A stretch of 64,000 nt of DNA, taken from the NCBI GenBank assembly GCA_964478075.1, contig CAYZGO010000007.1:22975-86974 (forward strand), read 5' to 3'. The position numbers and the translations under genes were made by a program. Source of the DNA: an uncultured Anaerolineales bacterium (GTDB taxonomy: Bacteria; Chloroflexota; Anaerolineae; UBA2200). Below are positions 18,592-54,055 of this stretch, one piece after another. The notes below the pieces were generated by a model. The model saw nothing but the letters and a program-made list of their open reading frames with translations. It ran no database searches and was not told where the DNA came from. Numbering within the stretch: the stretch's first letter is position 1; each line of letters starts with the position of its first letter.

Positions 18592-18615
18592 CGCGGTTCC
18601 TCCTTGGGTAGTACT

Positions 18616-19341: not shown

Positions 19342-19447
19342 GGCGCTCTCCCATAAGCACCCAACCTCCCGCAGGTTCAGTTTGCGGTAGAGAATCAGGC
19401 AACTTTGTTGGCCAGCCTCTCGACCCAAACCAACGTGCGGGAGGGTT

Positions 19448-19888: not shown

Positions 19889-19898
19889 GGGCGTCTCC

Positions 19899-20495
19899 CT
19901 AGAGGGGAAGAGTGAGCTGCTGCGCTTCCGGTTTCGCTTCAGTCACTGTCCCATTGGGACGGATGTGAAACACACGGGCTCCGCGTTCCAGCAGAGTCGG
20001 TGTGATGAGCTTGGTGCGGTGACATTTGCGATAGTCACCCTCGCTGCACATCATGGCTACGCGCTCTGACTCGGCCAGTTTGAGGAGCCGTTCGATGCCA
20101 GTCTGATAGGCCGGAGTTTGCGCCAGGCGTTCATAGTTGGGATGCTCCTGACCTGCATCGTAGAGCGCAGGATCAGCAGGCCGCCCGCCGAGGGAATCAC
20201 CCGTGAAGACGTAGCGTATGCCAGCAGCCTCAAGGTCACGACGCAGGCTCTCGCGGTTGAACTGTGGTGCCCACTGACTATACGGCTGGCTGCGCACGTC
20301 CACGACGACGGTGATCCTCTGTCGGCGCAGCAGATCTAGGAAGGCTTCGATTGTGTGATCGCTGTGGCCGATGGAACATATCTGCACGCGGCCTATCGCT
20401 GACTCTTCTGTGATCACGTCCGTGCTCATCGCATTTCCAGCCTCTGGCGCACTCAGTCGTGAACGCATTCTAGCCTGAAAGCGTGCAACCTGCAA
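19899..20495 (-). CDS. DUF488 family protein (second paralog; N-terminal start uncertain)
   Basis: VQICSIGHSDHTIEAFLDLLRRQRITVVVDVRSQPYS...GIRYVFTGDSLGG matches the DUF488 core. A 10-nt gap separates it from the downstream paralog. Confidence 0.65.
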   Translation of the reverse strand: MQVARFQARMRSRLSAPEAGNAMSTDVITEESAIGRVQICSIGHSDHTIEAFLDLLRRQRITVVVDVRSQPYSQWAPQFNRESLRRDLEAAGIRYVFTGDSLGGRPADPALYDAGQEHPNYERLAQTPAYQTGIERLLKLAESERVAMMCSEGDYRKCHRTKLITPTLLERGARVFHIRPNGTVTEAKPEAQQLTLPL

Positions 20496-22446: not shown

Positions 22447-22521
22447 GCGGGGTGTGGCGCAGCCTGGTAGCGCGCAGCGTTTGGGACGCTGAAGTCGGAG
22501 GTTCAAGTCCTCTCACCCCGA
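22447..22521 (+). tRNA. tRNA-Pro (anticodon TGG)
   Basis: Cloverleaf folded by hand: acceptor CGGGGTG/CACCCCG, D-arm GCGC-AGCCTGGTA-GCGC, anticodon stem CAGCG/CGCTG with loop TTTGGGA, T-arm GGAGG-TTCAAGT-CCTCT. No encoded CCA. Confidence 0.8.
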
Positions 22522-22562
22522 CAGCAATAGCGGTCGAGCATTTGTGACCGCAGCCTGTGTTT

Positions 22563-22635
22563 GCGGGTGTAGCTCAGTTGGCAGAGCTCCTGCCTTCCAA
22601 GCAGGTTGTCACGGGTTCGAGTCCCGTCGCCCGCT
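22563..22635 (+). tRNA. tRNA-Gly (anticodon TCC)
   Basis: Acceptor GCGGGTG/CGCCCGC, D-arm GCTC-AGTTGGCA-GAGC, anticodon stem CCTGC/GCAGG with loop CTTCCAA, T-arm ACGGG-TTCGAGT-CCCGT. Confidence 0.8.
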
Positions 22636-22703
22636 CCTACTATGTGGAATACGCCTCCAGGCAAGATGCCAGAGCAGGTTGTGGTGGTGAACCCCCAACG
22701 TGC

Positions 22704-24860
22704 TCATGCCCCCTTTGCTCGGCCTCGCCGCAGAAGTTCGTCCGGCACATTCGCCAGGAAGCAGGAGGGCTGGCCCTGAGAGTAGCTCAGATAGAGCAGG
22801 TCTCGAGCACGGGTCATGGCCACGTACAAGCGTCTCCGTTCTCGATCCAGGTAGTCTTCCAGCTCCTCGTTCTGCAATGTAGGGTTATCCCTGGGCACAT
22901 ATAGGCCATCTGTTACACCAAGTACAAACACTACTGTGAATGTCAGCCCTTTTGCGCTGTCAAAGGTGCCATATTTAACAGCGCTCCCCCAATATGAGCT
23001 TGTCGCCTTCTGCAGATCGGACAACTCCACGTGGGGCGACAAGTAGAGTTTGATGAGGTCTGCATAGGGTCGCTGCCAGCGGTAGATGAGGGCAAAATCA
23101 GAATCTGCATACCCTCGCTCTTTCTTCAGGCGAGCGATTTCGCTCATAACCCAACATACTTCGGCGTATGGGGTAGCAAAGCCGTGCAGCCTTGGCACAT
23201 CACCACGCCGCTCGGAGAACTCTGGTTCGGGAGCTTCTCCGTCTGCATCGTCCATGTTGTCGAGACGCACACCCGCCACCATAGCATGCGCCGCGCGCAG
23301 GATTTCCCGCGTATTGCGAAAGCTCTGGGACAGCAGGGCGCCCCGCCCAATGATGTCAATACCCAGCGACTTTAGCGCATAGCCACCGGGATAGATACGC
23401 TGCAGCCCATCCCCGACGAGAAAAAGGTCGTTTGGCCCCGGGGGAACAATCCGACGGATCAGGTGCATGGCGGCCTGGGTCAAGTCTTGGATTTCATCCA
23501 CCACAGCAGCTACGTATGGTACTGGCAGCAGTTCAGGCCGGAACAACCGCAAGGTTTCCAGCACGAAATCGCCATAATCCCACAACCCCCGGCGTTTCAG
23601 ATCTGTCTGATACGCCTTGTACACCGCGTAGACAGCACGACGGTGCGCGTCCCGTAGGGGAGTGCCGCGGCCGCTGCGATCCAGAGCCAAGTACTCGTCT
23701 ATGGTCCGTACGTCTCGTCCCTTAATAGCGTAGCTGATCTCCGAGTAGAAGAACGACCATGGACGAGCCCAAAGGCTCAATCCGGGATAGTGTGGGACGA
23801 TCTGGAAGATCGCATGCTGCACAGCCTGCTGGACAGCCTCCTTGTCCACCACAGGATTCTTGCCTTGACTCACCAGGAAGCGATAGCACCACTGAGCCAC
23901 ACCACTACAATCCACAGCCTCGAGTTCAGGAGCCCCTTCGCCAGCCAGACCTTGCAGCTGATGCCAGGCGACGCCCGCCAGGCGATCGTCGTACGTCAGG
24001 AAAAGGACTTTGCCCCCCGTTTTCAGCGCCTGACGGGCCAGGTTGCGAGCACGGTGAATGGCTACCACGGTCTTGCCGGAACCCACGACCCCTTTCACAC
24101 GGGCTGGGCCGCTGTACGAGCGGGTGGCCAAGGCACGTTGGCGAGGGGTGAGAAAGAGCATCCACTCCTCCATGTTTCCGGCCAAGGCCCGCTGAAACTC
24201 GTCGCCATTGATGAACCGATGTAGATGATAGCCCCCTTGGTGGTGCTCCAGTCTCTGCTGCAGCTGTTTGTCCGGCACGGTCGGCTTTTCCACAACACTC
24301 AGCGCGATTTCCAGTAACTGACCGTACGCTTCGCCAGACAAGAGGCGTTTTACCCATGTTAGCTGCTTGGGATTATCCAGTAGACGCACATTGGGCAGCA
24401 CATACTCTGGTACACCGATGTCCAGCAACTGTTCATCACTATAGTCCGCGAAAAGCGTCCTCGGTTCCCCTTGCACGCCGCGAAGCCGACCGACCAGTCC
24501 GCGCTTCCCTTCCACGGGCTTGGCGCTCACGTGGAGCAGGTCCACCACTTTGACCATGCCGTCCTGAAGTCTGAAGCTCGTTCGCGCTGCGCGCCGGTAC
24601 GCCTCAACCTGCCGATCCACCAGGCACAGCACCATGTCGTAGGGCTCGATGTGCTTCCAGATCAGGCAGTAGGACTCATCCACACGACATGAATAGACTG
24701 CGCGCTCTGCTTGAGGCACCTTCTCGCAATGCAACCCATCAGCCCAGGGATTGTCGAGCATCTGTTCAACGGTGCGCACCAGACTCGTGGAGACAGCAGG
24801 CGGCAATTTGCCCAGGTCTCGCAAGGAATCACGGGTCATGGTCGGTTTCCAGGATTCCAT
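22704..24860 (-). CDS. SF1 (UvrD/PcrA-like) helicase with an N-terminal RelE/ParE-toxin-like domain
   Basis: 718 aa. The N-terminal region (about residues 15-90), LRDLGKLPP...AVYSCRVDESYCLIWKHIEPYDMVLCLVDRQVEAY, has the RelE/ParE pattern (yRvg-dYRiiY...v.vl.v.hR..vY). The helicase core has Walker A GVVGSGKT, DEIQD, VGDGLQRIY, LSQSFRNT, FDSAKGLTFTVVFVLG and LYVAMTRARDLLYL. Confidence 0.8.
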   Translation of the reverse strand: MESWKPTMTRDSLRDLGKLPPAVSTSLVRTVEQMLDNPWADGLHCEKVPQAERAVYSCRVDESYCLIWKHIEPYDMVLCLVDRQVEAYRRAARTSFRLQDGMVKVVDLLHVSAKPVEGKRGLVGRLRGVQGEPRTLFADYSDEQLLDIGVPEYVLPNVRLLDNPKQLTWVKRLLSGEAYGQLLEIALSVVEKPTVPDKQLQQRLEHHQGGYHLHRFINGDEFQRALAGNMEEWMLFLTPRQRALATRSYSGPARVKGVVGSGKTVVAIHRARNLARQALKTGGKVLFLTYDDRLAGVAWHQLQGLAGEGAPELEAVDCSGVAQWCYRFLVSQGKNPVVDKEAVQQAVQHAIFQIVPHYPGLSLWARPWSFFYSEISYAIKGRDVRTIDEYLALDRSGRGTPLRDAHRRAVYAVYKAYQTDLKRRGLWDYGDFVLETLRLFRPELLPVPYVAAVVDEIQDLTQAAMHLIRRIVPPGPNDLFLVGDGLQRIYPGGYALKSLGIDIIGRGALLSQSFRNTREILRAAHAMVAGVRLDNMDDADGEAPEPEFSERRGDVPRLHGFATPYAEVCWVMSEIARLKKERGYADSDFALIYRWQRPYADLIKLYLSPHVELSDLQKATSSYWGSAVKYGTFDSAKGLTFTVVFVLGVTDGLYVPRDNPTLQNEELEDYLDRERRRLYVAMTRARDLLYLSYSQGQPSCFLANVPDELLRRGRAKGA

Positions 24861-25340: not shown

Positions 25341-25970
25341 ATGATCCAGGCCATTTCAATCAGGAAAGCGGTGCTGCATGCTTGGGCGTGTCTCACTCAG
25401 CTCTTGGTCACGTCACACGTAGACTGGAGTGCGAAGGGACCAGGACGTCAGGAGAGGCGAGACGTGGAAGTCTGGTACGCACTGCATACCAAACCACGCA
25501 AAGAGTACCAGGTGCGTGATCTCCTGGAGAGCCGGGGAATGGAGACGTATCTGCCGGTGCTCAAGGTGACCTGTAAAGGACATCTGCGAAAGAGACGCGA
25601 AAAACCTTTCTTCGCTCGCTATCTCTTTGCGCGCATGGACCTCACCAGCGTGCCGCTCTCCTCCCTAAACTGGGCTCCCGGTGTGACCCGCGTGGTCAGT
25701 TTCGGTGGCCAGCCAGCCGTGGTGCAGGATGAGATACTGCAGTGGCTGAAAGACCGGCTGGCGCGGATAGACTCGAGAGATTACCACCAGGGGCTGCCCC
25801 TTCGGCGCGGTGACCGGCTGCGGGTGAAGACCGGGCCGCTGAAGGACATGGAGGTCATCTTCGAGCGGCCACTGTCTTCAGAAGATCGAGCGCAGGTGCT
25901 CATCGAAATGTTGGGTCGCCTCACCGCCTGCCAGATTGATCTACATTGCCTCGAACGGATGGAAAGATAG
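25341..25970 (+). CDS. NusG-paralog transcription antiterminator-like protein (UpxY/LoaP/TaA-type; NGN plus KOW domains). The start may be the GTG near 25453.
   Basis: NGN domain VEVWYALHTKPRKEYQVRDLLESRGMETYLPV...KPFFARYLFARMDL. KOW motif LRRGDRLRVKTGPLKDMEVIFER. It sits at the head of a co-directional polysaccharide cluster rather than in a secE-nusG-rplK context. Confidence 0.75.
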   Translation: MIQAISIRKAVLHAWACLTQLLVTSHVDWSAKGPGRQERRDVEVWYALHTKPRKEYQVRDLLESRGMETYLPVLKVTCKGHLRKRREKPFFARYLFARMDLTSVPLSSLNWAPGVTRVVSFGGQPAVVQDEILQWLKDRLARIDSRDYHQGLPLRRGDRLRVKTGPLKDMEVIFERPLSSEDRAQVLIEMLGRLTACQIDLHCLERMER

Positions 25971-26302
25971 CAGGCCGGGCTGCCACGCCCGGCTGTCCGG
26001 CGGCGTGCCCACTCCGCTTCACGCCGTGGATGCTGCGCGAGCAGCCGCCTCTGCTGACCTTTCGTAGAAGCTCGTGGGCAGTTGAAGGACGCTAACAGCC
26101 GCCCTCTCGCAGATGGGCGGACATACGGCGGGTTGCTTCGATTGGGTCTTTGTTGGGGGCAAACGTGACCCAATGGCGGAGCGTGCCTGACTATCGTTCT
26201 GGTGCCACCTGAGAGAAGGTACCGGAACGGCGGAGCCTGCCTGGGCAACGTGAAGCGTGAAACGTGATGAGGGGCGGGTAGCGAGTGGCGAGGCGGGAGG
26301 AA

Positions 26303-27067
26303 ATGACACAGCCGGTGGGCCGAATGCGGGCCCCCGGCGGCACGTGGGGCAACCTGCGGCTGTACATGGAACGGCAGGCCGCGAGCCCGGCGCGCTACCT
26401 CCTCGAGCAACTCCTGTTCGCCCTTGTGGGCTGGATCCCCACGGTGCTGGGCATCGGACTCAGGGCGCTTGTGTATCGGCTGATCCTCCACATGGACGGA
26501 CTGGCAGCTATCGAGAACGGCGTGCGGCTGCGCTTTTGCAGCCACATCCGTCTGGGCCGCGGCGTGTACATAGACAATGGCGTCTATCTACATGCCTGCC
26601 TGGGCGGCATCGAAATCGGTGAAGGCACCTTTGTGATGCATCACGCCGAGCTCCACGTGTACAATTTCCGCAGCATCCCCCATTCGCACATTCGAATAGG
26701 TCGCAACTGCTTGATCAGCGAGTACAACGTCCTGCGCGGGCAGGGCGGCATCACGATTGGCGACAATGTCTACACCGCCCCTCTGGTGCAGATGCTGGCC
26801 GTTGACCACGTTTATGACGACCCGACGCGGCCCATCATCGAACAGGGGATCACGGCGAACGGGATTGTGATTGAGGACAATGCCTGGATCGGGGCCGGGG
26901 CCATCATCCTCGACGGGGTGCGGGTAGGGAAAGGGGCCGTGGTAGGAGCGGGGGCGGTCGTGACTGAGGATGTGCCACCACACACGGTGGTGGCAGGAGT
27001 TCCAGCCGAGGTGGTGGAACAGATTGAGGGCGCCCCTACATCGGCACGAGGGACGGTGTACTTCTGA
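26303..27067 (+). CDS. Hexapeptide-repeat (left-handed beta-helix) acetyltransferase
   Basis: Repeated [LIV]GxxxxI hexapeptides ([43 protein letters not shown]). RBS GGGAGGAA before the ATG at 26303. Confidence 0.75.
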
Positions 27068-27140: not shown

Positions 27141-28349
27141 GTGAGCACGCTGTCAGTGGTGATCCCAGCCTACAATGAAGAAGACGGCATTGCCGCCATC
27201 ATAGAGCGCGTGCTGGCGGTGCGGGCGCGGCTGGCTGCGGTCGGTATGGACCTGGAACTGATCGTCGTGGACGATGGCTCCAGCGACCGCACAGTGGAGA
27301 TCGTGCGTCGCTACGACGGTGTCACCCTGGTGTGCCACGAGCGCAACGCTGGCTACGGCGCTGCCCTCAAGACCGGCTTCGCCTCGGCGCACGGCGAGTG
27401 GCTGGGCTTTCTCGATGCCGACGGCACTTATCCGCCGGAACATTTCCCTCAACTGTGCCAGACGGCATTGGAGCAGAGCGGCGATCTTGTGATCGGCTCG
27501 CGTCGCTCAGGTGCCCAGAGCGAGATGCCCCTGCTGCGGCGGATAGGCAATCTCTTGTGGTCTAATCTGGTCAGCCTGGTGGGCAACCATCGGGTCAGTG
27601 ACCCGGCCAGCGGGATGCGGGTCATCCGGCGGACCGCATTGCCCCTGCTCTATCCCCTGCCCGATGGGTTGAACTTTACGCCGGTGATGAGCACGCGGGC
27701 CATTCACGAAGGGCTGAAGATGGTCGAGGTGCCCATCCCCTATCACGAGCGGATGGGTCGTTCCAAGCTGAACGTGGTGAGTGACGGCACCCGCTTCCTG
27801 CAATCCATCGTCTGGACAGCCCTCACCTACAACCCAGTGCGAATCTTCGGCGGCCTGGGGGTGCTCGCGGTCGTGGCCGCGCTGCTGGTGGGGGCCACCA
27901 TGCTTCTCTTTGGAGTGCGCGGCGGCGCACAGCCCTGGCCGGCTTTCCGATTGTACGTGATCTTGGTGCTGGTGGTCGGTGGGGTCAACCTCTTCTCGGT
28001 GGGCACGCTGTTCAACTACCTGGTTTCCCTGTTCCACAAGAGGCCGGTCCGCCAGGGACTGCTGGGCAAACCGCTGTTCAAGACGCCTGTGGAGCGAAAC
28101 TTTATCTGGATGGGGCTGGCAGCGGGTGCCCTTGGCGGGTTGTTCGCCCTGGCAGCCATACGGGAGGGGCTTACGCTGCCCCCTTCGCCTGCCTACCCCT
28201 TCTACCTGTTGACCAGCGGCATGTTGCTCCTGACCGGCTTGCAGCTCATCCTCTCGTGGATCCTGGTGCTGGTTCTGGCTGAGCTGAGCGAGCGCGAAGT
28301 GCAGGTGCAGGACGACATGGAAGGTACGGTGAGGCAAGGCGAGGGATGA
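27141..28349 (+). CDS. GT2 polyprenyl-phosphate sugar synthase-like glycosyltransferase (GtrB/ArnC/DPM1-like) with C-terminal TM helices
   Basis: GTG start. VVIPAYNEEDGI...VVDDGSSDRT...DADGTYPPE (DXD), then four C-terminal TM segments. Confidence 0.75.
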   Translation: MSTLSVVIPAYNEEDGIAAIIERVLAVRARLAAVGMDLELIVVDDGSSDRTVEIVRRYDGVTLVCHERNAGYGAALKTGFASAHGEWLGFLDADGTYPPEHFPQLCQTALEQSGDLVIGSRRSGAQSEMPLLRRIGNLLWSNLVSLVGNHRVSDPASGMRVIRRTALPLLYPLPDGLNFTPVMSTRAIHEGLKMVEVPIPYHERMGRSKLNVVSDGTRFLQSIVWTALTYNPVRIFGGLGVLAVVAALLVGATMLLFGVRGGAQPWPAFRLYVILVLVVGGVNLFSVGTLFNYLVSLFHKRPVRQGLLGKPLFKTPVERNFIWMGLAAGALGGLFALAAIREGLTLPPSPAYPFYLLTSGMLLLTGLQLILSWILVLVLAELSEREVQVQDDMEGTVRQGEG

Positions 28350-29971
28350 CCACGCGGACAAATCTGGAGCCCCAGCCCGGGTTCTCCGAGGTAGATGAGA
28401 TGCCTGGGGAGCCAGCAGCGGAAGCACGGCCAGCGGGGGCGGTGGATGTGCTGCTGGTCAATCCCCCGGCACCCGATGGCGGCATCTGGATCCGCAGTCA
28501 GCACCGCGTCGGCCGGCGCAGCCGGGAAGGAATGATCTGGCCACAGGTGTCGCTGGCGCAGATGGCGGCGCTGTTAGCTCCCGACTACTCCGTCGAGATC
28601 GTGGACGCCATCGCCGAGCGGACGAGCTGGCCGCAGTTCGAGGCGCTTCTGCGACAGAAGCACCCTCGCTATTACGTGACCCAGGTGACGGCGCCAACGC
28701 TGCAGAACGACATGTACGGCACCTTCCTGGCTCGCTCCCTGGGCGCTCGTACCATCGCCTTTGGCACGCACGTCACCCCCATGACGCGGGAGACAATGGG
28801 GCCTTATCCCAGCCTGGACTTTGTGCTGCGCGGTGAGCCAGAGTTGACACTGCTGGAGCTGCTGGGCACTCTCGAGGGGCAAGGCCTGGGGCGCTGGAGC
28901 AAACTGTTTGAGGGCGCGGATGCGGACTGGTCAGAGATTCCGCAGGACGGTCCAGGATCAGGAAGCCCGCGTCTGGAGCCCATCAAGGGGCTCGCCTGGA
29001 GGCGGGATGGCGAGATCGTCATCAACCAAGACCGGCCCTTGATCAAGAATCTGGACCATCTACCCCTGCCCCGCCATGACCTGCTGCCGCTGGATCGCTA
29101 TCGCGTCCCCATGATCAAGGGGCCGTACAGCTTTGTCGTCACGAGCCGCGGCTGTCCCGCTGGGTGCCGTTTCTGCATCAAGCACGTCAGCTACGGCCGC
29201 ACGGTGCGGGTCCGGTCGCCAGAGAACGTGATCGCCGAGCTGAGATTGCTGCGCGACCTGGGGCTGCGCAACGTCCACATGTATGCCGACCTGTTCACCG
29301 TGAATCGGGATCAGGTTATGGGCATTTGCGAGCTGATGCTGGAGGAGGAACTCGATTTCCGCTGGATGTGCAACAGCCGGGTGGACTTTGTGGACGAGGA
29401 GATGCTGCGCCTGATGGCGCGAGCCGGCTGCTGGATGATCGCGTGGGGCATCGAGTCGGCCAACGAAGGGATTCTGCGACGGGTGCGCAAGGGCTACCGG
29501 CCCGGGCGGGCAGCGCAGGCGCTAAGCTGGGCCAGGGCGGCGGGCATCAAGAATTGGGGCTATTTTATCATCGGTCTGCCGGGCGAGACTGACGAGACGG
29601 CGCAGCAGACCATCGAGCTGGCCAAGAGGCTGCCTCTCGACGTGGCCCTGTTCCACATCGCTGCGCCCTATCCAGGCACGCCCTTTTACCAGGAGGCGGT
29701 GGAGAAGGGCTGGTTCCGGGAGGGGACGCGCTGGGAAGATGTGGATATGGACCGCTCCACCGTGCTGGATTACCCAGAGATGCCGGGGGAGCGCATCGAG
29801 TACTGGGCACGGCGGGCGTTTCGGGAGTGGGCCTTCCGGCCGGGGCCGCTCTGGACGTACCTGACCAGCATGGCCAGTCCCGCGACGTTCCGCGCAGCAG
29901 TAAGGATCGGACTGGAGAGCCTGGGGTGGATAAGGGAGACGGAGGAACGGAGGCGGACAGACAGCAAGTGA
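28346..29971 (+). CDS. B12-binding-domain radical SAM protein (class B)
   Basis: The N-terminal cobalamin-binding domain starts at VDVLLVNPPAP. The radical SAM core has CxxxCxxC (SRGCPAGCRFC). 541 aa. ATGA overlap with the upstream gene. Confidence 0.8.
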   Translation: MTTRTNLEPQPGFSEVDEMPGEPAAEARPAGAVDVLLVNPPAPDGGIWIRSQHRVGRRSREGMIWPQVSLAQMAALLAPDYSVEIVDAIAERTSWPQFEALLRQKHPRYYVTQVTAPTLQNDMYGTFLARSLGARTIAFGTHVTPMTRETMGPYPSLDFVLRGEPELTLLELLGTLEGQGLGRWSKLFEGADADWSEIPQDGPGSGSPRLEPIKGLAWRRDGEIVINQDRPLIKNLDHLPLPRHDLLPLDRYRVPMIKGPYSFVVTSRGCPAGCRFCIKHVSYGRTVRVRSPENVIAELRLLRDLGLRNVHMYADLFTVNRDQVMGICELMLEEELDFRWMCNSRVDFVDEEMLRLMARAGCWMIAWGIESANEGILRRVRKGYRPGRAAQALSWARAAGIKNWGYFIIGLPGETDETAQQTIELAKRLPLDVALFHIAAPYPGTPFYQEAVEKGWFREGTRWEDVDMDRSTVLDYPEMPGERIEYWARRAFREWAFRPGPLWTYLTSMASPATFRAAVRIGLESLGWIRETEERRRTDSK

Positions 29972-30684
29972 CTGAGCCGCAACCATCACCGTGGCCGGAG
30001 TATCGCTTCCGTTTCCCCCGCTACAATCGTTGGCTGGCGAACCGCCTGCGGCCGTTCATGGGACAGCGGGTTCTGGAGGTGCAGTGCGGCCTGGGGCACA
30101 TGACGGGGCTGCTGCTGGATCGGGAGTTCCTGGTGGCCGTGGATTCTGTCGCTGAGCACGTGGCCGCTGTGCAGGCCAGGTACGGAGAGCGAGAGGATTT
30201 CGGCGCCGCAGTGCAGGACATGTGCAGCCCGGACGCGCTCAGCTTACGACAATATGGCATTGACACGATCCTGTGTGCCAATCTCCTGGAACATCTGGAC
30301 GACGACCGGGCTCTGGATACAATGGTGGCTATCCTGCCACCTGGAGGAAGGCTGATCACTTTGGTTGCTGCTTTTGAGAGCCTGTTCAATGCGCTGGACC
30401 GGGGTGCAGGGCATCTACGGCGCTATGACAAGGGAGCGTTCGTCGCCCAGCTTGCCAGGCACGAGCTGAGCGTGAACGAGGCTTTCTACGTCAACAGCCT
30501 GGGTCTGCTGGGGTGGTGGGTACGGGGCAGCCTGCTGAGACGGGAGATGCCCTCCGTGAGCCAGTTGCGTCTCTTCGACCGCCTGGTGCCGCTCTGGGGG
30601 GCGGTGGAGAGGCGGATTCCTCCGCCGTTTGGGTTATCCCTGGTCTGTGTGGCAGACAAGCGGCGCGCAGGCATTGGAGGGTAG
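29968..30684 (+). CDS. Class I SAM-dependent methyltransferase
   Basis: GTG start overlapping the upstream TGA. Motif I VLEVQCGLGHMTGLL, motif post-II ILPPGGRLI. Confidence 0.7.
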   Translation: MTEPQPSPWPEYRFRFPRYNRWLANRLRPFMGQRVLEVQCGLGHMTGLLLDREFLVAVDSVAEHVAAVQARYGEREDFGAAVQDMCSPDALSLRQYGIDTILCANLLEHLDDDRALDTMVAILPPGGRLITLVAAFESLFNALDRGAGHLRRYDKGAFVAQLARHELSVNEAFYVNSLGLLGWWVRGSLLRREMPSVSQLRLFDRLVPLWGAVERRIPPPFGLSLVCVADKRRAGIGG

Positions 30685-31604: not shown

Positions 31605-32693
31605 ATGACTTACCAGTCATCACTCATGAATCCACACCACTCACCCTTCAAACACCAACACATTGCCATCATCGGCCTCGGGCGGATGGGCATCGCTCAC
31701 GCAGCACTCCTGAACACCATCGCCAGGGCAAAGCTAGTGGGCTTTTGCGACCTGAGCCGGCGGTTGGGGCGGCAGGCGCGCGGGATGGGCTTTCGTGACG
31801 TGCCTTTCTACACCGATGTGGAGCGCTTGCTGGATGAGACTCAGCCGGATGGCGTTTTCATCTGCACGCCACCCCATACGCACCTGCCCATCGCCCGGCA
31901 GTGCGTGCCGCGGGTGGAGGGGGTCTTTGTGGAGAAGCCGCTGGCGCAGTCACTGGCGGCGGCCCAGGAGATGGTGGCGCTGGTGGAAGGACGGGGGCTG
32001 GTCCATGCCGTTGGCTATCACTATGCCTACGTTCCCATCTTCCAGCGGGCCGGGGAGCTGTTAGGCCAGGGGGTCATTGGCGGGCCAACGGAGGTACGTG
32101 CCTCCATGTTCCTCACCCAGGTGATGGGGCCCAAACGAGCGAGCTGGTGGTACGACCCGGCCAAAGCCGGGGGCGGGGTGGTGATCAGCATCACCTCACA
32201 CCTGCTGGCTTTGCTGCAGGAGTACTTTGGCGCGGTGGCCTGGGCGGAGGCACAAACCCGGCGGCTGCACTCCAAACTGGTCGAGGACGAAGCGACCATC
32301 CGGCTGGGCTTTGCCAGTGACCTGCAAGCAGTGGTGGAAACCTCGTGGAGCGTGCCCGGCTACGAGCGTTCGGCGATAGAGATTGGCATAGAGGGAGAGA
32401 ACGGCACGTTGACGGTGACCGATGGGGAGATTCGCCTCTCGCTGCAGCAGGCTACGAGCGGCTTCCCTGCAGGGGAAAGCCATGTCCCCGTCTCCGACGT
32501 ACCCGACCCGGCCGAGTTTGAGCTGGGTGGGCCGGGTTTCTGGGCCGAGGATGCGGACTTGATAGCGTGCCTGGGCGATGCAGCGGAGCGGGCCCCGCGC
32601 GTGACTTGGCACCAGGCATTGGCGACACAGGCCGTGCTGGACGCGGTGTACGGGTCGGCTGAGAGAGTCGAGAAGGTGGGGCTGGATGGCTGA
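31605..32693 (+). CDS. Gfo/Idh/MocA family oxidoreductase (sugar-nucleotide dehydrogenase-like, WbpB-like)
   Basis: N-terminal Rossmann HIAIIGLGRMG and the EKP motif FVEKPLA. 362 aa. Confidence 0.75.
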   Translation: MTYQSSLMNPHHSPFKHQHIAIIGLGRMGIAHAALLNTIARAKLVGFCDLSRRLGRQARGMGFRDVPFYTDVERLLDETQPDGVFICTPPHTHLPIARQCVPRVEGVFVEKPLAQSLAAAQEMVALVEGRGLVHAVGYHYAYVPIFQRAGELLGQGVIGGPTEVRASMFLTQVMGPKRASWWYDPAKAGGGVVISITSHLLALLQEYFGAVAWAEAQTRRLHSKLVEDEATIRLGFASDLQAVVETSWSVPGYERSAIEIGIEGENGTLTVTDGEIRLSLQQATSGFPAGESHVPVSDVPDPAEFELGGPGFWAEDADLIACLGDAAERAPRVTWHQALATQAVLDAVYGSAERVEKVGLDG

Positions 32694-33471
32694 GTTGGCC
32701 GGATGGATACTCAACGCCGACGGCGCTTCGACCGATGAACTGCGCCGCGGGCTAAGGACCGGGGCGGATGCAGTGATGGGGACATACCGCCCGGAGCTGT
32801 TAGGCGCACTGCGCCAGCTGCGCCGCGAGTTCGACTTTGAGGTCTACCCCGTGGTGCCCAACGCACCAGCCTACGTGCGAGACCTGGCCGACCTGGGGAT
32901 GATGGGAGCGGCTCTGAAGCGGCTCCGGCGGCTGCCGCCGGCCGGCTGGCTGCGACTGGCGGCTTATGGGCTGCGGAATGTGCGCGGCCTGCTGGCGCAG
33001 GACTTTGCGGGGATGCTGGGGGTGATGGTGCTGATGGAGTTGCCGATCTTCTCACCCTTCCAGCCACGGGTGATCTTCCTGCATGCCCAGATGACCGACC
33101 TGATGCTGGCCTGCGGCAACGCGGCCGGCTTCCGGGCCTTCGCCGATCTGGTGCGGGACTACGGGGCGGAACCAGGGCTGGAGACGCGCAACTTTGGACA
33201 CCTGGTGGCGAAGTTGGGCGAGTGGATGGTAGATGTGCCAGTAATCGCTGCGCCGTTCAACCTGAGGGGGTACGGGATGCGCCCGTCGCAGGCGGCATGC
33301 GAGGCGCTGCTGGATCAGGAGAGGACGACAGTGGCGGCGAAGGACGTGCTGGCGAGTGGGGCTGTCACGGGGAGTGAAGCGGCGGAGTACGTGAGAATGC
33401 ATTCCCTGAGTTCGATGGTGCTGGAGCCCGATAACGCGGCTGGTCTCGCCGCCGTCTGGCGGGGGGAGTAA
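32686..33471 (+). CDS. Hypothetical protein (261 aa), translationally coupled inside the glycan operon
   Basis: 8-nt overlap with the upstream stop. No motif I can name. High GC and uniform codon bias. Confidence 0.5.
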   Translation: MAELAGWILNADGASTDELRRGLRTGADAVMGTYRPELLGALRQLRREFDFEVYPVVPNAPAYVRDLADLGMMGAALKRLRRLPPAGWLRLAAYGLRNVRGLLAQDFAGMLGVMVLMELPIFSPFQPRVIFLHAQMTDLMLACGNAAGFRAFADLVRDYGAEPGLETRNFGHLVAKLGEWMVDVPVIAAPFNLRGYGMRPSQAACEALLDQERTTVAAKDVLASGAVTGSEAAEYVRMHSLSSMVLEPDNAAGLAAVWRGE

Positions 33472-33475
33472 CCGT

Positions 33476-34963
33476 ATGCGGTCATATCTGCACGTGAGGT
33501 TGTTACTCACTGGCGGCCTGGTGGGGGCCTTGGCTTGGGCTGTCGTAGTATCGTTCCTGTGCACCGGCCCTGCGGTGGCCCAGAGCGGCGGGTGGAGTGA
33601 GCCCATCAACATCTCCAACACGCCGGGCAACTCCCGTTACCCGGAGATTGCGGCCGATGCGTGGGGCAACGTGCACGTAGTGTGGAGTGAGGATGAGGAC
33701 GGCCAGGGGTGGGGAGAATCCATCTACTACACGATGTGGAATGGCGAGGCATGGACCGAGTCGGTGGACATCTTCTACACCCCGCCAGCGGCTCACATCC
33801 CAGCCGTTGCAGCGGATAGCCTGGGATACGTGCACGTCGTGTGGAACGCGAACAACACGACGAGGTACAGCCGGGCCCGCATCGGCGATGGGCCCTGGTC
33901 GGCGGCTGCCTGGTCAAGGCCCCAAATCCTCAGTACACAGTCCGCTTTTACTACCTATTGGACCGACATCGCTGTTGACGACCAGGGGAACCTACACGTA
34001 GTTTGGACCGAACGGAGCGCGGAGGATGAACTCGAAGATTTGTACTACAGTCGCTCAGTGGATGGTGGACAGTCTTGGTCGCTGCCAATCAACCTTTCCA
34101 GTACTCCTGAGCAACAATCATCTTTTGAACAGATAATCACTGATGCTGAGGGCAATCCACATGTAGTTTGGCTGGAGCTGTCCAGGAGTCGTGCTGGCTG
34201 GGACGAGGGTGACGTTGGGGTTTTCCATAGCTGGTCTAGCGACGGTGGAGAGTCTTGGTTTGCCCCGGAGGAGATGTCGCAGCCAGGGCCGGAGGGGTTT
34301 AGTGGTGCCTATCCGGCAATCATTGCTGACGACCAATACGTTTACACTATCTGGAACGAGCGACGTAATGATCCTAGAAGAGATACCATTTTTGCTAGGC
34401 GATGGGAGGATGGTTGGTGGTCCGACATTGCGGTGGTGACGGACGACTCCGGCATGATAGGGACTAGTGGTATATGGACACGGGTTCGGGGCGTAGCGGA
34501 CGGGGCAGGCAACCTACATCTCGTGTGGGAGACGTGGGATGGCGAGGCTATCACCGTACAGTATGTGTGGTCCGAGGATGGAGGGCAGACCTGGTCGGTG
34601 CCGGTGGCGATCTCGAACCCGTCACCGCCGAGTGAACTCTGGCGAACCGACATTGCAGTCAGCGAGGAGAATCGGTTACATGTGGTGTGGTTTGGGGGCG
34701 GTGACATCTACTACGCCACCTATCAAACTACGGCACGGGCAGAGACGCCGCTTCCCTATGTGGCGAGTACCTCAGCTCCACCTACTGCCACGACCCCAGC
34801 AACGATGCCGTCTCCTACCGCCGTAATAGGCTCAACACCCAATCCAGCCATGGTGCAAGGAGGTGTGCTTCAGAGTTCCTGGTTCCCTTTGCTTGCTGGC
34901 ATTGTTCCGGTGATAGCGCTTGTGTTGCTGGTGATCGCTGTGCGGGGCAGGGCCCGACAGTGA
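33476..34963 (+). CDS. BNR/Asp-box repeat beta-propeller protein (sialidase-like fold) with a signal peptide and a C-terminal TM anchor
   Basis: N-terminal signal/TM. Seven blades marked by h-V-V-W motifs (NVHVVWSE, YVHVVWNA, NLHVVWTE, NPHVVWLE, YVYTIWNE, NLHLVWET, RLHVVWFG). Asp-box SxDxGxTW-like motifs SVDGGQSWS, SSDGGESWF, SEDGGQTWS. A Pro/Thr-rich linker, then WFPLLAGIVPVIALVLLVIAVRGRARQ. Confidence 0.7.
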   Translation: MRSYLHVRLLLTGGLVGALAWAVVVSFLCTGPAVAQSGGWSEPINISNTPGNSRYPEIAADAWGNVHVVWSEDEDGQGWGESIYYTMWNGEAWTESVDIFYTPPAAHIPAVAADSLGYVHVVWNANNTTRYSRARIGDGPWSAAAWSRPQILSTQSAFTTYWTDIAVDDQGNLHVVWTERSAEDELEDLYYSRSVDGGQSWSLPINLSSTPEQQSSFEQIITDAEGNPHVVWLELSRSRAGWDEGDVGVFHSWSSDGGESWFAPEEMSQPGPEGFSGAYPAIIADDQYVYTIWNERRNDPRRDTIFARRWEDGWWSDIAVVTDDSGMIGTSGIWTRVRGVADGAGNLHLVWETWDGEAITVQYVWSEDGGQTWSVPVAISNPSPPSELWRTDIAVSEENRLHVVWFGGGDIYYATYQTTARAETPLPYVASTSAPPTATTPATMPSPTAVIGSTPNPAMVQGGVLQSSWFPLLAGIVPVIALVLLVIAVRGRARQ

Positions 34964-35005: not shown

Positions 35006-35647
35006 ATGCCTTCGATTTGGTATTACCATCCTCTTTTGTACGAATTTGGCGCAATCCTCCTCCAGGGGAATCGTTACAACAGAATGCTGTCCCGTGTTGC
35101 AGAGATGATAGGAAAGAACAAGTCAGTGCTTGATCTTGGGGCTGGGACGTGCAGACTTGCTTCAATGCTGGATAGCACGTGCACATATGAGGGCTGGGAC
35201 CTGAACCAAAGGTTCGTGAGTTACTATCAGCGTAAAGGGATAAACGTGAAGTTGATGGACGTGTTTCAGTATAGCTCATACCCGCCTGTTGATTGTATCG
35301 TGTTGTTGAATGTATTCCACCATGTAGCACCGAGGCAGTCAGTCCTGTTGAGACAATGCCTAGAGCACGCGGGAGAGAAGGTTATCGTCTGCGAGCTATT
35401 TCGTAATGTGGAATCTCGCCCAATATATTGGCGGCTGGTCAGGCTTCGCGAGATCCTGGGCTTGGAGAAGCTGATAGGAGATTGGGATGGTGTAAACAGG
35501 GAGTTCGATCGCTATCCGCTAATGAGCAAGGATGAACTCAGAGCTTTCTTGGATAAGCATGGACGGTGCAAAATCACCGAGCTAGATAACATGTCAATGC
35601 TGCTTGTAGTGTACCAAGTTGGCAGAGAAGGAGGGCAGTCGAAATGA
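35006..35647 (+). CDS. Class I SAM-dependent methyltransferase
   Basis: Motif I VLDLGAGTCRLASML. The region has lower GC. 213 aa. Confidence 0.65.
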   Translation: MPSIWYYHPLLYEFGAILLQGNRYNRMLSRVAEMIGKNKSVLDLGAGTCRLASMLDSTCTYEGWDLNQRFVSYYQRKGINVKLMDVFQYSSYPPVDCIVLLNVFHHVAPRQSVLLRQCLEHAGEKVIVCELFRNVESRPIYWRLVRLREILGLEKLIGDWDGVNREFDRYPLMSKDELRAFLDKHGRCKITELDNMSMLLVVYQVGREGGQSK

Positions 35648-37290
35648 GCAAGCGGAACGCCGTTCTTCTCGTATGGCGATACAAGATTCTCCTGGTGGTC
35701 CTTCTGGTTGGTGTTGTTCACATCCTTTCGCTAACAACACAAATCGGAGGTCATGATCAGTCACAATACGTTATGCTGGCGCAGTCCATTGCTGGTGGTC
35801 AGGGGTTTCGACAGCTAAATCTGCCCGGCAACCCACCAGAAAAACTCCGTGTTCCCGGATTCCCCTTGCTCCTTGCTCCGATTGCTTACCTCTGGCCTGG
35901 CTTTCCTGAGAATCTCCTTGGGTTCAGGTTGGTTTCCATTCTGTTCAGCTTGCTTTCTCTGGTAGCTGCATATTACTACTTTGTAAAACGCAAGGGCATC
36001 CAGCCACATATTGCCAGCCTCATGGTTCTACTTCTGGGGTTGAATCCCCTCATGGTCGTGTTTTCCTCGCAGGCAACTTTTTCCGAGATTCCTTACCTCT
36101 TCTTTTCGGTATTAGCTCTCTCGCTGCTGGAGGGGATTGGCGCCAAAAAAGGTGCCCGATATCTTGTAATAGCAGCCTTCGCGATATTGGCGAGCTATTT
36201 CATTCGAGTGGTGGGAATAGCCTTGTTGGCTGCCGGCGTGAGCAACTTTCTTTTAAGAAAAAGGTGGAAAGAGGCTGCAATCATCTTCCTGGTATTGGTC
36301 TTGTTTGTGCTGCCCTGGGCATACCGTAATTCCTCAGCAGGCACTTCGGCATTAACTACGGAACATGTTTGGTATATCCTGCAAAAGGATTATCAGAGAC
36401 CGCATCTTGGGACCATCGGCTTGCAAGACATGGCCCATCGCTTGCTCAACAACATCTGGGGGCATACAACAGAAACTATCTCATGGCTCTTTATCCCTTG
36501 GGCGGTAAATGGTTGGTGGCCAGCTTTTCTGGCCCGTCTTCATTTACAACAACTGGCGTGGACGTCGGCAGCTCTTGGTCTTGCCGTGTCTGGCCCGTGC
36601 ATCCTGGGGTACATTCTGACTTTGAAAGAGAAGTTGACCGTCACTCATCTCTATGTCTTCTTCCTCATAGGCATTATCCTGTTGGCCCCCTGGTACGTGG
36701 AGCGAAACCTGTGGCCGCTGCTGCCTTTCCTGCTCTACTACTTTGCCGTGGGCCTGCGTTGGTTTGTTGAGAGGGCATCGCTTTTGCGGCGCAAGTCGCT
36801 TTCTCTGGCTGCGGCGGCCACTGTGGTCGCTTTGTGTATTATCCTGTTCGGTTTTGCGGCGAGCGACAGACATCTGTTGGCAGCGGGGGCGGCGTATCGA
36901 GCTGGAGAGATTGATGAGTCGGAGAGGGTCTTTGGCGAGATGTGCGAATGGATTCGCAACAATACTTCCCCCGACGATTTGCTCCTTTACCGCTTTCCGG
37001 TCAAAACTTATCTCTACACCAGGCGTAAAGTGATGGGCATTCCCATGATCATAGACCACGACGCGTTCCTCTCTGAGCTGAATCATGCTGGTGTGGACTA
37101 CGTCGTGCTGGAACCTGATCGGCAACAAGGGTATGAGTATGGGTGGTTCGATCAGGTCTACTTGCAGCCAGCCGTGACTGCCTATCCTCAATCTTTTGTC
37201 CCTGTGCACCAGATCGGCACCGATCCCGACCATCCTGCGCTCGTGATATATCGTTTTGAGAGCCTGCCAGCGCTGGGCGAGGAGCAATAA
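35644..37290 (+). CDS. GT-C fold membrane glycosyltransferase (GT39/ArnT-like)
   Basis: 548 aa with about 11 TM helices in the N-terminal 400 aa and a C-terminal soluble domain. ATGA coupling with the upstream gene. Confidence 0.6.
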   Translation: MSKRNAVLLVWRYKILLVVLLVGVVHILSLTTQIGGHDQSQYVMLAQSIAGGQGFRQLNLPGNPPEKLRVPGFPLLLAPIAYLWPGFPENLLGFRLVSILFSLLSLVAAYYYFVKRKGIQPHIASLMVLLLGLNPLMVVFSSQATFSEIPYLFFSVLALSLLEGIGAKKGARYLVIAAFAILASYFIRVVGIALLAAGVSNFLLRKRWKEAAIIFLVLVLFVLPWAYRNSSAGTSALTTEHVWYILQKDYQRPHLGTIGLQDMAHRLLNNIWGHTTETISWLFIPWAVNGWWPAFLARLHLQQLAWTSAALGLAVSGPCILGYILTLKEKLTVTHLYVFFLIGIILLAPWYVERNLWPLLPFLLYYFAVGLRWFVERASLLRRKSLSLAAAATVVALCIILFGFAASDRHLLAAGAAYRAGEIDESERVFGEMCEWIRNNTSPDDLLLYRFPVKTYLYTRRKVMGIPMIIDHDAFLSELNHAGVDYVVLEPDRQQGYEYGWFDQVYLQPAVTAYPQSFVPVHQIGTDPDHPALVIYRFESLPALGEEQ

Positions 37291-37291
37291 C

Positions 37292-53356: not shown

Positions 53357-53374
53357 GGCCGCGGAGGCGAGTCC

Positions 53375-54031: not shown

Positions 54032-54055
54032 CAACCGTTGATTGGGGGAGCATCA

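Follow-up and report, generated by a model that had tools for sequence, protein, structure and literature searches.

The window, the whole 64-kb stretch of DNA that was analysed, carries a glycan operon in which the gene of a radical SAM enzyme directly follows that of a GT2 polyprenyl-phosphate glycosyltransferase. The genes of this operon, and the parts of the radical SAM protein that bear on its interpretation, are:

25341–25970, + strand: transcription antiterminator paralogue of the NusG/RfaH type, heading the glycan operon (65 bits for Pfam NusG; RfaH 92 and UpxY 74 bits in NCBIfam, both below cut-off)
26285–27067, + strand: hexapeptide-repeat sugar O-acetyltransferase, first gene of a conserved trio (59 bits for Pfam Hexapep; WbbJ and WcaF of NCBIfam subthreshold)
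27141–28349, + strand: GT2 polyprenyl-phosphate glycosyltransferase of the ArnC/DPM synthase/GtrB type, with four C-terminal membrane helices (Pfam Glycos_transf_2 112 bits)
28346–29971, + strand: radical SAM enzyme of class-B architecture, 541 aa, the gene under study (sequence, Pfam, NCBIfam, homologues, AlphaFold model)
28442–28873, + strand: its N-terminal Rossmann (B12-binding-like) domain, residues ~33–176 (AlphaFold strands; PF02310 14–16 bits)
28484–28528, + strand: basic loop specific to the family, W48-I-R-S-Q-H-R-V-G-R-R-S-R-E61, linking strand 1 to helix 1 (invariant in 30 homologues)
28991–29023, + strand: beta-hairpin after the Rossmann domain, residues 216–226 (AlphaFold strands 216–220 and 223–226)
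29135–29623, + strand: radical SAM core, residues 264–426 (PF04055; aligns with AprD4 and QCMT/MgmA)
29144–29176, + strand: [4Fe-4S]/SAM cluster motif SRGCPAGCRFC (C270, C274, C277), invariant across the family
29681–29935, + strand: C-terminal helical domain, residues ~446–530, common to the HpnJ clade (HpnJ HMM alignment 210–530)
29968–30684 (alternative start GTG 29926), + strand: class I SAM methyltransferase, a locus-specific neighbour (Pfam Methyltransf_25/12/11, 31–33 bits)
35644–37290, + strand: polytopic membrane protein with at least nine hydrophobic segments and a soluble C-terminus, a candidate GT-C transferase using polyprenyl-phosphate sugar (hydropathy profile; no Pfam match)
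50263–51969, + strand: GT-C (PMT_2/TMEM260-like) glycosyltransferase, candidate polyprenyl-phosphate sugar user (Pfam TMEM260-like 26, PMT_2 25 bits)
55189–57549, + strand: membrane protein resembling O-antigen ligases (Wzy_C), its C-terminus carrying TPR repeats (Wzy_C 76 bits in Pfam, TPR as well)
58008–59294, + strand: GT-C (PMT_2) glycosyltransferase, candidate polyprenyl-phosphate sugar user (Pfam PMT_2 42 bits)

Judged by its homologues, the open reading frame at 28346–29971 is not a product of chance: more than 6,000 are found, the best 120 clusters being 65–100% identical, and relatives are present in at least 574 species genomes, with 60–83% identity between classes of Chloroflexota. 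The protein passes the Pfam threshold for Radical_SAM (PF04055, 97.5 bits against a gathering score of 29.5), and the cysteines of S267-R-G-C270-P-A-G-C274-R-F-C277, whose codons start at 29153, 29165 and 29174, are invariant in all 30 homologues compared. The earlier note, which had read a radical SAM gene with this motif here and had offered a missing three-cysteine cluster as one ground for abandoning its reading, is borne out on this point. It had also described ATGA overlaps on both sides of the gene. The upstream one stands, the stop codon of the GT2 gene (TGA, 28347–28349) being shared with the start codon of the radical SAM gene (ATG, 28346–28348). The downstream one does not; the methyltransferase starts either at GTG 29968, in a GTGA overlap with the TGA at 29969–29971, or at GTG 29926, the gene caller's choice in locus L001, with an overlap of 46 nt.

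Across 84 related loci, mostly from Chloroflexota, the conserved unit consists of the O-acetyltransferase, the GT2 and the radical SAM gene, often followed by the Wzy_C/TPR membrane protein. Among the 67 related loci that have an upstream flank, 66 carry the GT2 gene directly 5′ of the radical SAM gene, with a 4-nt overlap in 11 of 59 and a spacing within 50 nt in about half, and the O-acetyltransferase lies 5′ of the GT2 in nearly all related loci. The position directly behind, and overlapping, a polyprenyl-phosphate sugar synthase, which had been noted from this stretch, is confirmed. The GT2 itself has what is expected of a polyprenyl-phosphate glycosyltransferase: a catalytic domain, juxtamembrane and transmembrane helices (four hydrophobic segments within residues 231–385) and homology to ArnC, its most similar solved structure (1.1e-21, residues 3–299), PfDPMS (1.4e-16) and GtrB (7.6e-16). 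Its best NCBIfam models (AglJ, dolichyl-phosphate hexose transferase and ArnC) all score below cut-off. The O-acetyltransferase has an N-terminal hydrophobic stretch at residues ~39–64, and its closest solved structures are maltose and galactoside O-acetyltransferases. Genes of the GDP-heptose pathway flank the trio in about 30% of well-flanked loci; none was found in the window, so the link to heptose rests on other genomes.

Further out, in 36 of 54 loci the Wzy_C/TPR gene comes immediately after that of the radical SAM enzyme, and the protein encoded in the window is the orthologue of this usual follower (39% identity over 595 aa to the protein of locus L003). The NusG paralogue is found 5′ of the trio in loci L003, L005 and L007, and in 12 loci by clustering. 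The class I methyltransferase behaves differently: none of the 80+ other loci has a homologue of it beside the radical SAM gene. This flanking methyltransferase is no conserved partner of the radical SAM enzyme in the orthologous family, in which the conserved neighbours are the O-acetyltransferase on the 5′ side and the Wzy_C/TPR protein on the 3′ side. The methyl theme is nonetheless rescued in part by a sister family, 38% identical, in which a class I methyltransferase always follows or is fused and in which, in Bacteroidota, a GT2 of the orthologous type (35% identity, 2.6e-57) again lies 5′. The methyltransferase in the window is not a specific orthologue of those of the sister family, to which its similarity is only generic, because other methyltransferases of the operon are at least as similar to them.

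The N-terminal domain raises the question of cobalamin. In the AlphaFold model (pLDDT 72.8, pTM 0.77) strands at 35–39, 83–87, 109–113, 135–139 and 159–161 alternate with helices, and the hairpin follows; this is the layout given for class 1 cobalamin-dependent radical SAM enzymes, a five-stranded Rossmann domain and then a beta-hairpin, N-terminal to the barrel, the hairpin being a mark of these structures (PMC13331322). Foldseek matches of the model include AprD4, QCMT/MgmA, TsrM, OxsB, CysS and TokK. The B12-binding domain proposed from this stretch is thus supported at the level of fold and family, since 29 of 30 family members match PF02310 at E≤0.1 (best 2.3e-6) and sister-family proteins carry precomputed matches, but not at the curated threshold, the protein reaching 14.4–16.2 bits over residues 63–172 against a gathering score of 32.1. 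This is the lowest score among the relatives scored (BchE 84, MoeK5-like protein 57, HpnJ 20.7). Moreover, the class-B fold alone is not decisive, because its best match, AprD4, works without cobalamin. Neither a cobalamin riboswitch (Rfam finds two tRNAs only) nor B12 genes among the flanking ORFs occur in the 64-kb window, a stretch of a size that is uninformative on this point. Use of cobalamin by the enzyme is a prediction. The basic loop in the same domain recurs in the sister family as IRxxxRxGRxSxExMIWPQ, whereas HpnJ, the MoeK5-like protein and BchE lack it.

To which characterised enzymes is this protein closest? It passes no curated threshold at the family level in NCBIfam or Pfam, and assignment to any such family was rejected, every score lying below its cut-off. 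The best NCBIfam model is HpnJ (TIGR03471), which aligns to residues 210–530 with 212.8 bits against a cut-off of 577.6, the next model reaching 152; AprD4 (NF033070) gives 114.4 bits against 500, over the core only, PhpK 122 against 600, TIGR04014 (the QCMT/MgmA family) 119 against 360, and TIGR04295 (B12_rSAM_oligo, a radical SAM family of polysaccharide loci) 53.5 against 400. The closest solved structure is AprD4 (sequence 1.6e-31, profile 3.1e-35, Foldseek E 2e-25, TM 0.75 on target) and the second best QCMT/MgmA (1.4e-27; Foldseek 4e-19); in the sequence and profile searches the alignment covers only the radical SAM core and never the N-terminal domain. The top BLAST score among relatives of characterised type belongs to the MoeK5-like protein (177 bits, 32.5% over 406 aa), and similarly distant relatives act elsewhere, an ApyD-like protein (165 bits) and a radical SAM protein of a Clostridium RiPP cluster (162 bits) on peptides and BchE on tetrapyrroles. 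A neighbour-joining tree of HpnJ, the MoeK5-like protein, BchE, the ApyD-like protein and other relatives is star-like and hence resolves no characterised sister. On a small sampling, HpnJ groups with a Lawsonia protein at 100% support, and the family falls outside their clade; the protein neither reaches the HpnJ cut-off nor is encoded in a hopanoid locus. The protein is a real radical SAM enzyme of a family that is so far uncharacterised.

It is informative to compare this system with those that it most resembles. HpnJ shares the three-part architecture and full-length homology (30% identity, 2e-51, the BLAST alignment extending to residue 533), including the C-terminal domain and a W-x-C-N motif; its B12-domain signature is likewise weak, and its gene, next to hpnI, adjoins and translationally overlaps glycosyltransferase-pathway genes that load a sugar onto lipid. 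The differences lie in the GT2, which here is of the ArnC/DPMS type and has no BLAST similarity to HpnI beyond the common fold, in the acetyltransferase that replaces the HpnK deacetylase (the part of the operon that was scanned holds neither HpnK nor other hopanoid genes), and in two elements that this family has in addition, the basic loop and an insertion spanning residues ~177–212. MoeK5 was compared through a Streptomyces clavuligerus protein that we take to be its orthologue from synteny (epimerase, AsnB, GT, AsnB-like, radical SAM) and the moe gene order. MoeK5 is also a class-B radical SAM enzyme that modifies a first sugar on its lipid carrier, and the MoeK5-like protein is ~40% identical in the core. 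It differs in having a canonical B12-binding domain and in that the similarity stops at residue 455, before the C-terminal domain; the MoeK5 gene belongs to an antibiotic cluster, and the carrier there is a phosphoglycerate lipid.

AprD4 (PDB 6FD2), the radical SAM 1,2-diol dehydratase that serves in the making of apramycin, resembles the protein in acting on a sugar and in its Rossmann-like N-domain, but is only 23% identical and has no cobalamin. Its substrate is a soluble aminoglycoside and it has a dedicated reductase partner. QCMT/MgmA (PDB 9CCB) is a true cobalamin-dependent C-methylase with the same class 1 layout; its substrate, however, is a protein (a glutamine of methyl-coenzyme M reductase) and the identity is 21%. 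The Arn pathway offers an analogy of pathway layout only, in that the product of an ArnC-type GT2 is modified on the carrier, then flipped and transferred by a GT-C enzyme; the modifying enzyme there, ArnD, acts on undecaprenyl-phosphate-Ara4FN and is a deformylase, not a radical SAM enzyme.

Two of the nearest characterised relatives work on lipid-linked monosaccharides right after the glycosyltransferase step, and because the pairing of GT2 and radical SAM genes is kept in 66 of 67 loci, modification of a lipid-linked sugar is a reasonable prediction. In hundreds of Chloroflexota species the enzyme beside this sugar-loading GT2 probably remodels the sugar that the GT2 has loaded, polyprenyl phosphate being the presumed acceptor. 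Of the earlier proposal that the glycan or its lipid carrier is modified, the first part is reasonable in this form; nothing was found in support of a methylated polyprenol. The three nearest characterised relatives all act on sugars but with differing chemistries (ring contraction by HpnJ, C-methylation by the MoeK5-like protein, dehydration by AprD4), and C-methylation, which the earlier note had predicted, is not established when the best HMM is that of HpnJ, the best structure is AprD4 and one relative in three is a methylase.

Nonetheless, a radical modification of the lipid-linked sugar made by the GT2, with C-methylation as its single likeliest outcome, is the reading that we tentatively prefer, at somewhat less than an even chance. 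Its firm ground is the domain architecture, the cluster motif and the conservation of the gene pair; the lipid acceptor, the sugar substrate, the use of cobalamin and the transfer of a methyl group are inferred. On the cytoplasmic side of the membrane, the GT2 would move one sugar from a nucleotide sugar, possibly GDP-mannose or GDP-heptose, to polyprenyl phosphate. SAM would then be reductively cleaved at the [4Fe-4S] cluster of the radical SAM enzyme, and the 5′-deoxyadenosyl radical would take a hydrogen off a carbon of the lipid-linked sugar, to which methylcobalamin in the N-domain may donate a methyl group, giving a C-methyl-branched sugar. The membrane-anchored O-acetyltransferase would decorate the same intermediate, and the flipped product would go to an extracytoplasmic transferase (a GT-C or the Wzy_C/TPR protein) and so onto the glycan. 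We lean towards methylation because the class-B enzymes characterised so far are mostly methylases (PMC9204698), MoeK5 is listed in the literature as the moenomycin C-methylase, QCMT is the second-best structure, a methyltransferase accompanies the sister family, and one overlaps the gene in the window. Against this reading stand family scores that all stay below their cut-offs, a best HMM and a best structure that both belong to non-methylases, the lowest PF02310 score, a window with neither cobalamin riboswitch nor B12 genes, the star-like tree and the lack of conservation of the adjacent methyltransferase in the orthologous family.

The same evidence can be read in other ways. If the enzyme works like HpnJ, the pyranose would open and reclose carbon to carbon, leaving a five-membered carbocycle (a cyclitol) on the lipid phosphate; this parallels proposals for HpnJ on the glucosamine of bacteriohopanetetrol and for calditol synthase, and the proposed chemistry has been summarised (PMC13459092). 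The rank of HpnJ as top curated family (213 bits, the runner-up having 152), homology that, unlike that to the MoeK5-like protein, continues through the C-terminal domain, B12-domain scores that are degenerate in both proteins and a GT2 neighbour that loads sugar onto lipid in both cases all fit this idea, as does the occurrence of HpnJ-like radical SAM genes in non-hopanoid glycan clusters, such as that on a Lawsonia plasmid (376 bits to the HpnJ model). However, the score is far under the HpnJ cut-off, the family branches outside the 100%-bootstrap clade, the GT2 is unrelated to HpnI beyond the fold, and an acetyltransferase stands in place of an HpnK-type deacetylase. A phospho-cyclitol would, moreover, no longer be a glycosyl donor, which would be hard to square with the presence of GT-C genes and with polyprenyl-phosphate sugars usually serving as donors. 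We regard a ring contraction as unlikely, though worth serious consideration.

A dehydration of the AprD4 kind, in which a vicinal diol (in a heptose, maybe the exocyclic C6-C7) loses a hydroxyl to give a keto-deoxy sugar that a nearby reductase turns into a deoxy sugar, would need no cobalamin. Among solved structures AprD4 comes closest in both sequence and fold, and its Rossmann-like N-domain binds no cobalamin (PMC12931638), in keeping with the weak PF02310 score here; an SDR and a GFO/IDH/MocA oxidoreductase lie just 3′ of the methyltransferase in the window, and an SDR cluster lies 3′ of the trio in 16 loci. Yet the AprD4 model falls far short of its cut-off and aligns to the core only, the conserved trio includes no reductase, and the N-domain is recognisably homologous to B12-binding domains in both the family and the sister family; we find this course decidedly improbable. 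It is also worth considering that the enzyme may act not on the product of the GT2 but on something else made in or near the operon, such as a nucleotide sugar that has yet to be transferred, the finished glycan, the chain of the polyprenol, or a peptide or protein. Adjacency of genes identifies no substrate, and there are the equally distant relatives that act on peptides or tetrapyrroles. Weighing against this, the GT2–radical SAM pairing is near-universal, on the same strand and often overlapping, across phyla as well as in the sister family, the conserved neighbourhood of the trio shows neither precursor-peptide nor RiPP genes, and we know of no characterised class-B enzyme that methylates a polyprenol carrier; a substrate of this kind seems rather improbable.

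Radical SAM enzymes of this architecture are already known to edit the sugars of antibiotics (GenK, MoeK5, AprD4) and the head groups of hopanoids (HpnJ). For the branch of envelope glycan synthesis that runs through polyprenyl-phosphate sugars, we know of no characterised member, and a literature search for radical SAM enzymes that work on sugars linked to polyprenyl or undecaprenyl phosphate, on heptose, or within O-antigen clusters returned nothing relevant. One can imagine, more doubtfully, that the trio, present in hundreds of Chloroflexota and in modified form in Bacteroidota and Desulfobacterota, makes a new lipid-linked heptose or hexose whose carbon skeleton is rebuilt on the carrier by radical chemistry, with a C-methyl branch or by ring contraction to a carbocycle, as a general step towards envelope glycans. 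If so, radical editing of sugars at the level of the carrier would be a general and so far undescribed step of bacterial envelope glycan synthesis. The family is tied to one glycosyltransferase and is therefore a well-defined target; its chemistry would inform us about the envelope of a major, poorly cultured phylum and would tell if a B12 domain so degenerate can still employ cobalamin. The names that its members receive automatically ("BchE", "YgiQ" and "B12-binding domain-containing radical SAM protein") are uninformative for the family.

The open reading frame at 28346–29971 (+) is a real gene under strong constraint. As the earlier note proposed, it encodes a radical SAM protein, 541 aa long, in which the motif SRGCPAGCRFC lies at S267–C277 (29144–29176), and it scores 97.5 bits against the Pfam Radical_SAM model (cut-off 29.5). 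At E ≤ 1e-10 it has over 6,000 homologues, of which the top 120 clusters share 65–100% identity with it and come from Anaerolineae-type metagenome bins; the three cluster cysteines plus ~130 further positions are invariant across a 30-sequence alignment. The ATGA overlaps described on both sides of the gene are found upstream only: its ATG at 28346 sits on the TGA (28347–28349) of a family 2 glycosyltransferase (GT2) gene at 27141–28349, a true ATGA overlap, whereas the class I methyltransferase gene downstream has two possible starts: GTG 29968, which would make a GTGA overlap, and GTG 29926, which a gene caller chose on a metagenome contig of identical sequence.

The family to which this protein belongs is uncharacterised, and no NCBIfam model scored against the window protein passed: HpnJ gave 213 bits (cut-off 578), followed by ApyD (152), BchE (144), PhpK (122), the QCMT family (119) and AprD4 (114). 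Real proteins for direct comparison were taken from annotated plasmids and chromids.

BLAST scores of comparison proteins against the window protein
MoeK5-like protein, S. clavuligerus: 177 bits, 32.5% over 406 aa
HpnJ: 171 bits, 30% identity, residues 44–533
Lawsonia glycan-cluster enzyme: 169 bits
ApyD-like protein: 165 bits
Clostridium RiPP enzyme: 162 bits
BchE: 129 bits

We infer the MoeK5-like label from gene order: the S. clavuligerus neighbourhood runs epimerase, asparagine-synthase-type amidotransferase, glycosyltransferase, second degenerate amidotransferase and then radical SAM, matching what we take to be the moe order, moeE5-F5-GT1-H5-K5. A bootstrapped neighbour-joining tree is star-like, with the window family as its own clade (100%) and HpnJ plus the Lawsonia protein as a separate clade (100%); no characterised sister of the window family is resolved in it. 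A search through all of 1.84 billion representatives gave 7,301 relatives at E ≤ 1e-30, of which the family itself makes up a few 50% clusters and beyond which lies a cloud of ~470-aa class-B (cobalamin-dependent type) enzymes at 30–38% identity. The cluster motif CxxxCxxC has disappeared from three relatives (P0123, P0131 and P0137; 51%, 40% and 38% identity), which keep the rest of the fold; in P0123 the region reads RSCPIDHEDSI. These representative sequences, which come without gene context, therefore look like catalytically dead paralogues.

The enzyme may bind cobalamin, as proposed: its architecture fits, whereas its domain signature falls below the curated cut-off. As modelled by AlphaFold from the family alignment (pLDDT 72.8, pTM 0.77), the protein is class-B-like, with a Rossmann fold of five strands, a beta-hairpin at 216–226, the radical SAM barrel and, at the C terminus, a helical domain; PMC13331322 describes a Rossmann fold with a hairpin as the layout of class 1 cobalamin-dependent radical SAM enzymes. 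Foldseek against the PDB ranked AprD4 first (E 2e-25), then QCMT/MgmA, TsrM, OxsB, CysS and TokK. QCMT (PDB 9CCB) is a true B12 methylase, and AprD4 does not bind cobalamin, yet falls within the same similarity network (PMC12931638). The B12-binding model PF02310, however, gives the window protein only 14–16 bits against a cut-off of 32.1, although at E ≤ 0.1 it recognises 29 of the 30 family members (best 2.3e-6). With the same model BchE scores 84, the Clostridium RiPP-cluster enzyme 82, the MoeK5-like protein 57, the Lawsonia HpnJ-like protein 48 and true HpnJ 20.7; because its score is the lowest, the window protein has the most divergent N-terminal domain of the set, and HpnJ is closest to it in this weakness.

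A relative is present in at least 574 genomes (scan of one genome per species), mostly Anaerolineae, Caldilineae, Ardenticatenales and Thermoflexales; a small number are bins that carry the label Acidobacteriota or another name. Gene context was counted over 84 non-redundant loci, by tblastn and by clustering of de novo ORFs. The placement of the radical SAM gene after a polyprenyl-phosphate sugar synthase gene is confirmed and general: the GT2 gene lies immediately 5′ in 66 of the 67 loci whose upstream flank spans 3 kb or more, with a 4-nt overlap between its stop and the radical SAM start in 11 of 59 loci and a spacing of ~50 nt or closer in roughly half. A hexapeptide acetyltransferase gene lies 5′ of the GT2 gene in essentially all 67 (48 called; in another 16 an ORF called on the antisense strand masks it), completing a trio. 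Of the 54 loci that have downstream flank, 36 carry, directly 3′ of the radical SAM gene, a gene for a 610-aa Wzy_C/TPR membrane protein; its orthologue in the window (39% identity) is 25 kb downstream at 55189–57549, so that variable glycan genes are, in effect, inserted between the two. The neighbouring methyltransferase gene does overlap the radical SAM gene in the window, as claimed, but neither it nor the SDR and GFO/IDH/MocA genes that come after it have counterparts 3′ of the radical SAM gene in the other compared loci.

A sister family (P0134 and relatives; ~510 aa), found in bins of Bacteroidota and Desulfobacterota, has 38% identity to the window protein and shares with the window family an otherwise unique loop, IRxxxRxGRxSxExMIWPQ. 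Its radical SAM gene is followed by a class I methyltransferase gene in five of five loci, overlapping it in L098, and in P0331 (L100 1–2139; 712 aa) and P0318 (776 aa) the radical SAM protein and a C-terminal class I (UbiE/Methyltransf_11) domain form one polypeptide. Two sister loci have a 5′ GT2 gene whose product shares 35% identity (2.6e-57) with the window GT2, and the window order of GT2, radical SAM and methyltransferase thus mirrors the canonical order of the sister family. The similarity of the window methyltransferase to those of the sister family is generic only, and we do not regard it as one of that type. An LPG_synthase_TM (flippase-like) gene, a candidate flippase for a modified lipid-linked sugar, occurs in sister loci L098 and L099 and in hpnI/J/K loci L088 and L092; the window yielded no homologue.

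What does the enzyme act on? It has the cluster motif and a class-B-like architecture, and its gene is tightly and conservedly paired with that of a polyprenyl-phosphate-type GT2. Across both its catalytic and its membrane parts, this GT2 most closely resembles ArnC, P. furiosus DPM synthase and GtrB, and it ends in four hydrophobic segments; the acetyltransferase is similar to maltose and galactoside O-acetyltransferases and to WcaF/WbbJ, and its N terminus carries a hydrophobic segment. We infer that the radical SAM enzyme would act on the lipid-linked monosaccharide made by the GT2, at the cytoplasmic face, since its nearest characterised relatives are all sugar-modifying and since HpnJ and MoeK5 work on lipid-linked monosaccharides; that its substrate is something other than the GT2 product is distinctly unlikely. 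The modified sugar would then be flipped and transferred by a GT-C or Wzy_C-type protein, and the operon has three GT-C-like genes. As to the reaction, the earlier note predicted an unusual modification of the glycan or its lipid carrier, with a C-methylated sugar or a methylated polyprenol as examples. The class prior, the similarity to MoeK5 and QCMT, and the methyltransferase fusion of the sister family favour C-methylation, whereas the top matches to HpnJ and AprD4 and the degenerate B12 signature count against it, and we consider it the likeliest single reaction, though somewhat short of an even chance. An HpnJ-like ring contraction, to which the top NCBIfam match (213 bits) points, seems unlikely, though worth keeping in view; an AprD4-like dehydration, for which the top PDB match in Foldseek argues, is very unlikely; other chemistry takes up the remainder.

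The identity of the sugar may be hinted at in other loci. Where flanks were good on both sides, heptose-type genes lie within 9 kb of the trio in 12 of 40 loci, flanking it directly in eight of the 12; their best family matches are GmhA, HddA, GmhB and mannose/heptose-1-phosphate nucleotidyltransferase. One locus (L082) reads nucleotidyltransferase, GmhA, GmhB, acetyltransferase, GT2, radical SAM, HddA-like kinase. This suggests that the sugar loaded by the GT2 may derive from GDP-heptose, a donor that fits because the GT2 is DPM-synthase-like. No heptose pathway genes were found within the 64-kb window.

What the earlier note observed thus stands, and its interpretation holds in part. That class-B-type radical SAM enzymes edit lipid-linked sugars is already known from HpnJ and MoeK5, and the radical SAM trio is a clean, testable target, not a surprise. 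In the literature searched we found no description of the conserved three- to four-gene module. The HpnJ-like gene of a Lawsonia intracellularis plasmid (L089 5554–7017; TIGR03471 score 376 bits, short of the cut-off) lies within a plasmid glycan cluster beside genes for a GmhA-like SIS protein (32% identical to Chloroflexota GmhA), GT2 and DUF2304 proteins, a second radical SAM protein and seven annotated methyltransferase ORFs; no hopanoid genes are annotated around it in the 12.8-kb stretch examined.

The trio lies in a very large single-strand glycan super-cluster (25341–63600, +), headed by a NusG/RfaH paralogue and including several GT4 and GT2 genes.

Features of the super-cluster and the rest of the window
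2982–3785: inositol monophosphatase
22704–24860 (−): UvrD-like helicase
29968, 35006, 41372, 46828, 48862 (+): five class I methyltransferases
31605–32693: GFO/IDH/MocA (inositol-dehydrogenase-like)
37256–38905 (+): Wzx
43352–44692 (+): Wzy
52079–53356: DegT aminotransferase, second carrier-sugar branch
53375–54031: PglD-like N-acetyltransferase, second carrier-sugar branch
54038–55063: second polyprenyl-phosphate GT2 (PgfS 202 bits, ArnC 149 bits), second carrier-sugar branch
60574–62046 (+): phosphoglycosyltransferase
from 62106 (+): Wzz/BY-kinase-like gene

Gene content, including the five methyltransferases, predicts a heavily methylated polymer. The Arn-like layout of 52079–55063 suggests an amino sugar on a carrier, and a CDP-alcohol phosphatidyltransferase family gene within the glycan operon (38943–39848) suggests a phospho-alcohol substituent or lipid anchor. 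A BNR/sialidase-repeat protein (33476–34963) has hydrophobic segments at both ends, and BNR proteins of similar type are encoded 3′ of the trio in five loci (L021, L029, L045, L075 and L077); the 261-aa protein encoded just before it (32686–33471) has no family match. On the other strand, 15460–20495, a possible island for repair or defence, encodes a 1,043-aa RecQ-type helicase with TPR and HRDC domains, then DuOB (dual OB) and DUF488 proteins. Genes for tRNA-Pro(TGG) and tRNA-Gly(TCC) lie at 22448–22637, ~2.7 kb 5′ of the NusG paralogue, separated from the glycan cluster by the UvrD-like helicase gene.
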